DNA of 46,496 bases from the IMG/VR virus record IMGVR_UViG_2630968543_000003. One strand, given 5' to 3'. The position numbers were made by a program, and so were the translations under genes. This document shows, in pieces, positions 16,385 to 18,345 of the stretch. This stretch comes from a virus. Lineage: Duplodnaviria; Heunggongvirae; Uroviricota; Caudoviricetes. The notes beneath the pieces were generated by a model that saw nothing but the letters and a program-made list of their open reading frames with translations, had not been told where the DNA came from and did not search any database. Position 1 is the first letter of the stretch. Each line of letters opens with the position of its first letter.

Positions 16385-16561
16385 ATGGCATTTAAACACT
16401 ATGACGTGGTCAGGGCGGCATCGCCGTCAGACCTTGCGAAACGACTGACACAAAAACTGAAGGAGGGGTGGCAGCCATTTGGCAGTCCGGTGGCCATCAC
16501 GCCTTATACCCTGATGCAGGCCATTGCGGCGGAAGGTGATGTCACCCACCTGTGGTGGTGA
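16385..16561 (+). CDS. DUF1737-like small protein (58 aa), apparently the detached N-terminal module of NanS-p
   Basis: ATG with GGGAGG RBS 4 nt upstream; below the ORF-track cutoff; its stop at 16559-16561 overlaps the esterase ORF in the -1 frame. Confidence 0.5.
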   Translation: MAFKHYDVVRAASPSDLAKRLTQKLKEGWQPFGSPVAITPYTLMQAIAAEGDVTHLWW

Positions 16562-18345
16562 AGCCGTCGGATGGAGAAGGCGCAGTTATCAGCACCACCA
16601 GCAACCCGGAGTATTACTTTGTTGTTGCCCTGGCCGGGCAGTCAAACGGTATGGCGTATGGTGAAGGGCTTCCACTGCCGGAGACATATGACCGTCCGGA
16701 CCCGCGTATTAAACAGCTGGCGCGTCGCAGCACTGTCACGCCGGGTGGTGCGTCCTGTAACTACAATGACATTATTCCTGCGGACCACTGCCTGCATGAT
16801 GTTCAGGATTTGAGTAAGTTTTCACACCCGAAAGCCAGTGCAGCTCAGTATGGATGCGTGGGGCAGGGATTACATATCGCGAAGAAATTGTTGCCGTTTA
16901 TTCCGGCGAATGCCGGTATTCTTCTGGTTCCGTGCTGCCGTGGTGGTTCTGCATTTTTGGCGGGCGATGAAGGTACCTTCAGCGAATCCACCGGCGCAAG
17001 CGAGACCTCGGCACGCTGGGGTGTAGATAAGCCACTGTACAAGGACCTGCTTACCCGTACTCAGGCCGCACTGAAGGCCAACCCTAAAAATATTCTGCTT
17101 GCAGTGGTCTGGATGCAGGGCGAGTTTGATTTGAAACAGGGTGCATACGCCACTCAGCCGGGGCTGTTTGATTCCATGGTGGAAAAATATCGTTCTGACC
17201 TGTCGGAATTCGGAGGTCAGTGTCTCGGGGGCTCTCCGTCATCGGTTCCCTGGATTTGTGGCGACACGACCTACTACTGGAAGCAGACTTATTCTTCGCA
17301 ATACGATGCGGTGTATGGTGCATACAAGACGAAATCCGCAAAAAAAATCTTCTTTGTGCCGTTTATGACGGATGAAAACGGGCGAAATGTGGGTACCAAC
17401 GAGCCGTCAGAAGATCCGGATGTTGCGGATATTGGGTATTACGGAGCCGGTGGTCGAACGGACGCCAAAACCTGGACGACGGCTGACCGTAAAACGCATT
17501 TTGGATCATGGGCACGTCGTGGGATTATTTCCGACCGTCTGGCAACGGCGATTCTTGTGCATGCCGGGAGAACCGCTGAATTCATTACCGGAAAACAGCC
17601 TGATACGGTGAAGCCCACCGGACCTTCCGGTGAAGGTACGGAGAGAGAGCCGGAAGGTCCGGTCAGTAACCGAACCCTGATGAGTCTGCTGGCGTCCGGC
17701 GAAGACCTGGCATCACAGGGCTGGCGCTATTATCACAAACCGGCGAGCGGAGACAATGTTAACAAAAACATTGCTGAAGCGGTGGTCAGTGATGCGGGGG
17801 CTACGGGAGGTAAGGCCCTGCAACTGAATAAACCGGAAAACCACATCTGGTTTCTGGAGCATGATGCAGCCGGGCAGGGGGCAGAGTTGCTGAAGAAAGG
17901 AGGACGTGTGAGCGTACGGTTTAAGTTGCCGGGTTCACTGGTGCCGAATCAGTTTGCCCTGGGCATTTACTGGCAGTTGTCGTCCCTGCCGGAGGGAGTG
18001 ACGCTGGCAGAGGAAGGCAACGACATGCTGATGTCCTTCTTTCTGCAGACGGATGCGACGAACCTGAACGCGATGCACCACAAGAAGCCGAATGCGAAGC
18101 TGGAAACGTTCGGGGTCTTTGATAACGGATGGCACACACTGGCTTTTGAGTTTGCCGGAAACAACAGCATTCAGGTGACGCCGGTACTGGATGAGAAACG
18201 GGGGACGCCGTTCACACTGGTGAAATCTCCGGCATCAGGGGCGGCGGACAAACTGCAACTGACAGGCATATCAAAGGCGGCGACATATACGCTGCTGATT
18301 GACAGTGTGAAGGTGGAAGTGAACAACGCGGATGCCGCGGCATGA
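16552..18345 (+). CDS. nanS: prophage sialate 9-O-acetylesterase (NanS-p-like, SASA family)
   Basis: 597-aa ORF from a GTG; GQSN motif (ALAGQSNGMAYGEG) typical of SASA esterases; located between tRNAs and lysis genes. Confidence 0.7.
   Translation: MVVKPSDGEGAVISTTSNPEYYFVVALAGQSNGMAYGEGLPLPETYDRPDPRIKQLARRSTVTPGGASCNYNDIIPADHCLHDVQDLSKFSHPKASAAQYGCVGQGLHIAKKLLPFIPANAGILLVPCCRGGSAFLAGDEGTFSESTGASETSARWGVDKPLYKDLLTRTQAALKANPKNILLAVVWMQGEFDLKQGAYATQPGLFDSMVEKYRSDLSEFGGQCLGGSPSSVPWICGDTTYYWKQTYSSQYDAVYGAYKTKSAKKIFFVPFMTDENGRNVGTNEPSEDPDVADIGYYGAGGRTDAKTWTTADRKTHFGSWARRGIISDRLATAILVHAGRTAEFITGKQPDTVKPTGPSGEGTEREPEGPVSNRTLMSLLASGEDLASQGWRYYHKPASGDNVNKNIAEAVVSDAGATGGKALQLNKPENHIWFLEHDAAGQGAELLKKGGRVSVRFKLPGSLVPNQFALGIYWQLSSLPEGVTLAEEGNDMLMSFFLQTDATNLNAMHHKKPNAKLETFGVFDNGWHTLAFEFAGNNSIQVTPVLDEKRGTPFTLVKSPASGAADKLQLTGISKAATYTLLIDSVKVEVNNADAAA

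Follow-up and report, generated by a model that had tools for sequence, protein, structure and literature searches.

The closest described relatives of the gene analyzed here are the NanS-p proteins of Stx phages, including Z1466/933Wp42 of 933W and vb_24B_21 (gp84) of phi24B. These proteins combine a DUF1737 domain, a SASA esterase domain and a DUF6645 domain in one polypeptide of ~640-655 aa, the Stx-phage forms being 643-645 aa long (PMC10462455). Their genes usually occupy the slot between Q and the tRNAs on one side and the lysis cassette on the other (PMC10462455; PMC8065619). In gp84, the DUF1737 domain binds capsid hexons as a hexamer, its density ends at Gly54, and cleavage probably occurs near the S-S-P motif that immediately follows this residue; DUF1737 proteins in databases are mostly single-domain (bioRxiv 10.64898/2026.04.10.717836).

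Two other systems bear on the comparison. Chromosomal NanS (YjhS; a 337-aa chain in structure 3pt5) is homologous to the catalytic domain but stands on its own, lacking equivalents of both DUF1737 and the C-terminal lectin domain. Translationally coupled gene pairs of the NUGA type are characterized by a 4-nt overlap between the stop codon of the first gene and the start codon of the second.

Here, we analyzed a nanS-p-like locus in a stretch of 46,496 nucleotides (hereafter, the window) from IMG/VR virus record IMGVR_UViG_2630968543_000003. The locus encodes the same three modules in the same order as NanS-p and lies in the same slot, with Q and a tRNA trio upstream and genes for DUF1378, DUF826, holin and lysozyme downstream. 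Unlike in the known NanS-p proteins, however, the modules are divided between two reading frames, and the prophage lacks stx and has a lambda-type head and tail. Our results indicate that the locus is very probably a nanS-p gene that has lost one base. The frameshift is inherited and unremarkable, in a gene that often decays. Identical copies are already known, flagged as frameshifted pseudogenes in RefSeq, and our literature search found no paper describing split nanS-p alleles.

Results

We characterized the two open reading frames of the locus. The upstream ORF (16385..16561, plus strand) starts at an ATG and encodes 58 aa, with a full-model Pfam match to PF08410 over residues 1-53 (E = 2.1e-17). 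Its residues 1-54 comprise a complete DUF1737 domain, identical to that of intact alleles in an alignment that was also made with phi24B gp84, and are followed by an out-of-frame tail, HLWW, and a TGA. A Shine-Dalgarno (SD) sequence, GGGAGG (16375..16380, plus strand), is located 4 nt before the ATG, and its duplex with the 3' end of 16S rRNA (-10.3 kcal/mol, compared with a window background of -3.3 +/- 2.6) was stronger than that of ~95% of the 22-mers in the window.

The downstream ORF (16552..18345, plus strand; 597 aa) carries no internal lesion and comprises a linker, a NanS-like esterase and a C-terminal lectin-like domain. It lies in the -1 frame relative to the DUF1737 ORF and overlaps it by 10 nt. 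The frame opens after a TGA at 16537..16539 (plus strand), and the only starts ahead of the first internal Met are three in-frame GTG codons at 16552, 16555 and 16558, within GTGGTGGTGA (16552..16561, plus strand). The last of these (16558-16560) overlaps the DUF1737 stop codon (16559-16561) as GTGA at 16558-16561, and gene callers used for public assemblies started the downstream ORF at this overlapping GTG (595 aa) in 10 of 10 loci. This 4-nt stop-start overlap is common to the window locus and NUGA coupled pairs, but at the window locus it arose accidentally from the frameshift and is not accompanied by a well-spaced SD. The best SD-like element before the GTG codons was GGAAGGTGAT at 16531-16540 (GGAAGGUGAU, -7.0 kcal/mol), where GGAAGGUGAU is separated by 13 nt from the first GTG and by 19 nt from the overlapping one, compared with the 5-10 nt of an SD. 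Because intact alleles also have this element, it is not an adaptation to the split.

Both products retained their domains. The catalytic domain of the downstream product (residues 17-335; 16600..17556, plus strand) was matched by Pfam SASA (PF03629) and aligned end to end with residues 16-331 of chromosomal NanS in a phmmer search against 3pt5 (E = 1.1e-118), with GQSN aligned and kept. The C-terminal lectin-like jelly-roll domain, DUF6645 (residues 408-592; 17773..18327, plus strand), matched NanS-p structure 6yp6 (phmmer, E = 4.5e-61) and PF20350 (Pfam, E = 2.2e-43), and the 597-aa sequence differed from intact alleles at polymorphic sites only. These matches to solved structures are decisive for domain integrity. 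The preliminary description had reported a 58-aa DUF1737-like ORF ending at 16561 with a strong ribosome-binding site, an esterase frame at -1 with a 10-nt overlap and GTG starts only, and an intact esterase domain, and each of these features was borne out.

To locate the frame change, we aligned the locus with intact NanS-p genes, as the same description had proposed. The near-identical alleles (99.5-99.7% identity) are one base longer and encode a single 653-aa DUF1737-SASA-DUF6645 protein. The gene-wide alignment with one of them, SCU-172, which encodes one 653-aa protein, contained a single indel, at gene nt 163. The deletion lies between 16546 and 16547 (plus strand) and removes the first A of codon 55 (ACA, Thr), in the linker between the DUF1737 and esterase domains. 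The intact junction reads GAT GTC ACC ACA CCT GTG GTG GTG AAG (D V T T P V V V K) and that of the window reads GAT GTC ACC CAC CTG TGG TGG TGA (D V T H L W W stop), so that ACC-ACA-CC has become ACC-CAC-C. Taken together, the two products lack only two residues, T55 and P56.

The junction and whole-gene alignments thus confirm the single-base indel considered at the outset, but not its proposed placement inside the GTGGTGGTG tract: the lesion lies 5 nt upstream, and the tract itself is unchanged. The GTG tract is where the new frame meets a stop and where start codons happen to occur. In a megablast search against 5,426 complete E. coli genomes, 370 records covered at least 80% of the region, and nearly all of the best records were one base longer and annotated as a single "SASA family carbohydrate esterase". 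Intact homologues have one 653-aa ORF rather than separate DUF1737 and esterase ORFs. The idea of two polypeptides as an ancestral design therefore fails, since the arrangement arises from the deletion and intact relatives encode one protein. NanS-p is defined by modules within one polypeptide, and the window allele, split at gene nt 163, departs from this definition.

The window allele belongs to the ExPEC/commensal type (653 aa if intact), with ~75% DNA identity to Stx-phage alleles, and its DUF1737 part shares 63% identity with its phi24B counterpart. In the alignment with gp84, G51 of the window protein corresponds to G54, and the gp84 SSP motif corresponds to T54-T55-P56. The Tyr of the DUF1737 anchor loop is kept, in a loop three residues shorter than that of gp84. 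As judged from this alignment, the 58-aa product would contain the complete DUF1737 fold up to the Gly54 equivalent, as expected of a stand-alone decoration protein. Because the deletion hits codon 55, which aligns with the SSP motif, the genetic split at TTP mimics the proposed proteolytic split of gp84.

We used the annotation of the collinear region of E. coli FDAARGOS_1304 to describe the prophage context. The prophage is lambda-like, lacks stx and is integrated beside mlrA. Upstream of nanS-p are the integrase and early genes, a quuD-type Q, a porin gene on the opposite strand, a truncated methyltransferase gene and three tRNAs (15641-15892 in the window). Downstream are genes for DUF1378, DUF826, holin, YdfR, lysozyme and Rz, followed by lambda-type terminase, portal, protease, gpD-like decoration, gpE-like capsid and tail genes, J, lom and a tail fibre gene. 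The gene thus occupies the late-region location of nanS-p, between Q and the tRNAs (followed in some phages by stx) and the lysis cassette. The structural module of FDAARGOS_1304, which is collinear with that of the window and 97.6% identical to it, served as a proxy for the head genes; it is lambda-like, with an S49 protease, a head decoration protein and a major capsid CDS of 1029 nt. These genes, gpD and gpE homologues, are of the lambda type and do not encode the T=9 capsid that is the partner of DUF1737 in phi24B.

We then investigated the distribution of the split junction. An 81-nt junction query had 100% matches in only two complete genomes, FDAARGOS_1304 and MS 196-1, in both of which PGAP annotates the gene as "frameshifted" in RefSeq, and more than 500 other complete genomes matched it with a one-base gap. 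Over 8.1 kb, 5 and 11 SNPs separate the window from these two RefSeq copies, and identity to FDAARGOS_1304 reaches 99.95% across the first 23.1 kb of the window. Because of these SNPs and the different structural module, the window represents a third, distinct copy of the split allele. The exact 58-aa product (ending in GDVTHLWW) was found on 121 public contigs and is indexed in 176 blocks that include isolate assemblies and gut metagenomes, and E. coli VR50 carries both the exact 58-aa and the exact 597-aa product, which makes this strain, or one nearly identical to it, the likely source of the window.

The split allele is nevertheless rare, at 0.4-5% depending on the collection, with ~98-99.6% of alleles in one frame. 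Of the 556 complete genomes in which at least 80% of the junction query was present, 2 had a split junction, compared with none of 78 IMG/VR loci and 2 of 37 metagenome-contig loci; species-representative genomes had no match to either junction form. The k-mer GATGTCACCCACCTGTGG is proposed for spotting the split allele in E. coli assemblies.

To investigate the origin of the allele, we compared 85 full-length alleles, comprising 15 split alleles, 53 fully intact alleles and 17 alleles with an intact junction that were disrupted elsewhere. Split alleles were not monophyletic in the whole-gene comparison, and they were located behind at least four upstream modules with different Q antiterminators and cargo. 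An A at window position 16674, 127 nt downstream of the deletion, was present in 14 of the 15 split alleles and in none of 65 intact-junction alleles, and a second private A, at 16744 (G121S), was present in 9 of the 15; the remaining polymorphisms of split alleles were common to intact alleles. These data are read most simply as a single deletion that was later spread by recombination between lambdoid prophages, with the private linked SNP at 16674 pointing to a single origin. Recurrent mutation at a hotspot, a possibility raised by the lack of monophyly, was rejected on the basis of the same SNP.

Breakage of nanS-p in E. coli prophages is ordinary, as about one-fifth of the sampled alleles were disrupted at other sites and a truncated form is widespread. 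Among the 67 intact-junction alleles that had not been picked for being pseudogenes, 14 were disrupted elsewhere, and all 17 disrupted alleles together showed seven distinct patterns, one of them a deletion that recurs in an A8 run. The closely related alleles of ATCC 25922, T309.Ta3 and MCJCHV-1 are annotated as "frameshifted" by PGAP, at other positions, and a 75-aa DUF1737 stub (P0003) was found on at least 1,000 contigs. These alleles belong to the same gene family as that of the window and are inactivated by small indels or a premature stop, where the window has a 1-nt deletion; they leave a DUF1737 stub. Each of their lesions, however, falls within a domain, either the esterase or DUF1737, and destroys it, whereas that of the window is located in the linker and leaves every domain whole. 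The only unusual aspect of the window allele is that its cut spares every domain and coincides with the proposed natural processing site.

Discussion

The deletion converts the 653-aa ORF into a 58-aa DUF1737 ORF (ending DVT-HLWW) and an out-of-frame esterase ORF of 595-597 aa. During late transcription, the DUF1737 peptide would be made efficiently from its strong SD and ATG, and the esterase would be made only by termination-reinitiation at GTGA, and hence at a reduced level. Reduced expression is expected because the starts are GTG codons and the SD-like element is located 13-19 nt upstream. Low-level coupled expression of the esterase half seems plausible, given the GTGA overlap and an esterase ORF that is intact in 15 of 15 split alleles. 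If made, the esterase would probably be enzymatically competent, because chromosomal NanS, its free-standing homologue, works without DUF1737. Its link to DUF1737, the module that tethers the enzyme to the capsid in phi24B, would nevertheless be lost. This tethering role may not apply here, because the host prophage has a lambda-type head rather than the T=9 capsid of phi24B.

One alternative is that the two-gene form is selectively maintained, with a stand-alone DUF1737 protein and a free esterase produced through GTGA coupling, mimicking gp84 proteolysis; its persistence would then be ascribed to the separation of the modules being neutral or advantageous. We consider this possible but rather unlikely. 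The position of the split, at T54|T55-P56, aligns with the S-S-P motif after Gly54 at which gp84 is proposed to be cleaved, and DUF1737 occurs mostly as a single-domain protein in databases (bioRxiv 10.64898/2026.04.10.717836); a lambdoid phage (L009) also carries a DUF1737-only gene at the same locus. Whole domains in both products with a loss of two residues, a canonical 4-nt GTGA overlap and an occurrence in at least four prophage contexts are consistent with two working genes. Against this, the allele is rare, translation of the second half depends on GTG starts with a poorly spaced SD, and the head of the host prophage is not of the phi24B type.

The disruption statistics are suggestive but fall short of significance. 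None of the 15 split alleles carried a secondary lesion, compared with ~2.4 expected from the disruption rate on the intact-allele tree (P(0) = 0.09), and a Fisher test of 0 of 15 versus 14 of 67 gave p = 0.06. Common descent and recombination with intact alleles also confound this absence of lesions, and the alleles sampled are not independent of one another. Carrier genomes have two to three nanS-p places, and recombination with intact paralogues can keep the esterase ORF intact without selection. Furthermore, of the two split-specific substitutions, one is synonymous and the other, G121S, is non-synonymous. We regard as doubtful the notion of an accidental but working two-gene NanS-p, cut within one or two residues of the proposed gp84 cleavage site, that persisted and spread among lambdoid prophages as both halves function.

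A sequencing or assembly error, in which the real gene would be intact and the missing A artefactual, was also suggested initially and is highly improbable. Single-base indels are the commonest assembly error, and some of the other disrupted alleles on metagenome contigs, with lesions in the A8 homopolymer (del1@957), are possibly such errors. In the intact sequence (ACCACACC), however, the base missing here is not part of a homopolymer. Two complete RefSeq genomes, assemblies of isolates from separate projects and ENA gut metagenomes all have the identical deletion. It is linked to a private SNP, and each of the 121 contigs has its own surrounding SNPs. Because these independent occurrences differ in their SNPs, an error is excluded as the source of the deletion.

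Programmed -1 ribosomal frameshifting or transcriptional slippage at a designed site, yielding a 58-aa protein and a full-length fusion, is just as remote, even though the overlapping frames meet at a domain boundary, the GTGGTGGTG sequence is repetitive and the minimum free energy fold of 16500-16620 has a predicted stem-loop downstream of the junction. The usable interval for a -1 shift, bounded by the esterase-frame TGA at 16537-16539, is 16540-16558 (19 nt; TGTCACCCACCTGTGGTGG), and it contains neither a slippery X XXY YYZ heptamer nor an A/T run on which the polymerase could slip. In-frame alleles share the GTG tract and the sequence after it, and the two-frame state is not conserved among homologues. 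The locus is not a case of programmed frameshifting, because a slippery site is absent and the two-frame state is rare and derives from a single recent deletion.

Annotators should treat the locus as a single frameshifted nanS-p gene, with its lesion at codon 55 and not in the GTG tract, instead of as two designed genes. Because about one-fifth of the sampled alleles in non-Stx E. coli prophages are broken, studies that use the number of nanS-p copies as a marker of fitness or virulence should check the integrity of each ORF. If the downstream half is expressed, the split allele would be a natural separation-of-function variant that could be used to examine the proposed capsid tethering by DUF1737. 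Should the two halves indeed work as separate genes, the allele would represent a natural experiment indicating that the covalent linkage between the esterase and DUF1737 is dispensable.

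Gene content upstream of nanS-p

Upstream of the split nanS-p allele, in which a 1-nt deletion separates the DUF1737 ORF from the esterase ORF, the window carries a porin gene on the minus strand (13729-14811), annotated as OmpC and assigned to Pfam Porin_1/Porin_4 in related loci. This gene lies on the opposite strand, flanked by a quuD-type Q antiterminator and by tRNAs, and the same porin context is common to several, though not all, of the split-allele loci. A remnant of a site-specific DNA methyltransferase gene (15304-15600, plus strand), which lacks its N-terminus and is labeled incomplete by PGAP, is located immediately 5' of the three tRNA genes. 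The tRNA gene at 15641-15716 was called by ARAGORN as tRNA-Met (anticodon CAT), whereas PGAP annotates the identical gene as tRNA-Ile in FDAARGOS_1304, a complete genome with the same deletion. Its counterpart in SCU-172, an E. coli strain with an intact nanS-p allele, is annotated as tRNA-Met.

Two Rfam matches to small RNAs were detected between the tRNA genes and nanS-p, namely STnc100 (15968-16176, plus strand; 131.7 bits) and AsxR, the "anti-stx2" sRNA (16180-16232, minus strand), the latter scoring 63 bits, exactly the gathering score. This interval is the position of stx in Stx phages, and the prophage in the window is without stx.

Variation at the nanS-p locus

Stubs consisting only of DUF1737 were much more frequent at the nanS-p locus than the split allele. 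A 75-aa stub of this kind (P0003), with the C-terminus ...VIVLARHSRP, was found on at least 1000 contigs, compared with 121 public contigs for the exact 58-aa split product. Likewise, the lambdoid phage vB_EcoS-640R1 (locus L009) carries a DUF1737-only gene at 2486-2689, followed by a small ORF and a holin gene, and the esterase is absent.

The esterase ORF also contains a run of eight adenines (A8; 17340-17347), all of which the window retains. Six loci with other alleles show a 1-nt deletion that maps to this homopolymer (del1@957). Because these loci have differing backgrounds, the A8 run is either a hotspot for frameshifts or a source of assembly errors.

Integration site and mosaic structure

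The annotated prophage integrase gene (75-1361, minus strand) adjoins the 3' end of mlrA (1-39), and the prophage is therefore integrated beside mlrA, where Stx prophages of O157:H7 insert as well. The left arm (1-23103), to which the split nanS-p and the lysis genes belong, showed 99.95% identity to FDAARGOS_1304, whereas the head and tail module (23501-43381) showed only 97.6%, and approximately 400 nt between them did not align. The window is therefore a mosaic relative to FDAARGOS_1304, in which the structural module has been exchanged.
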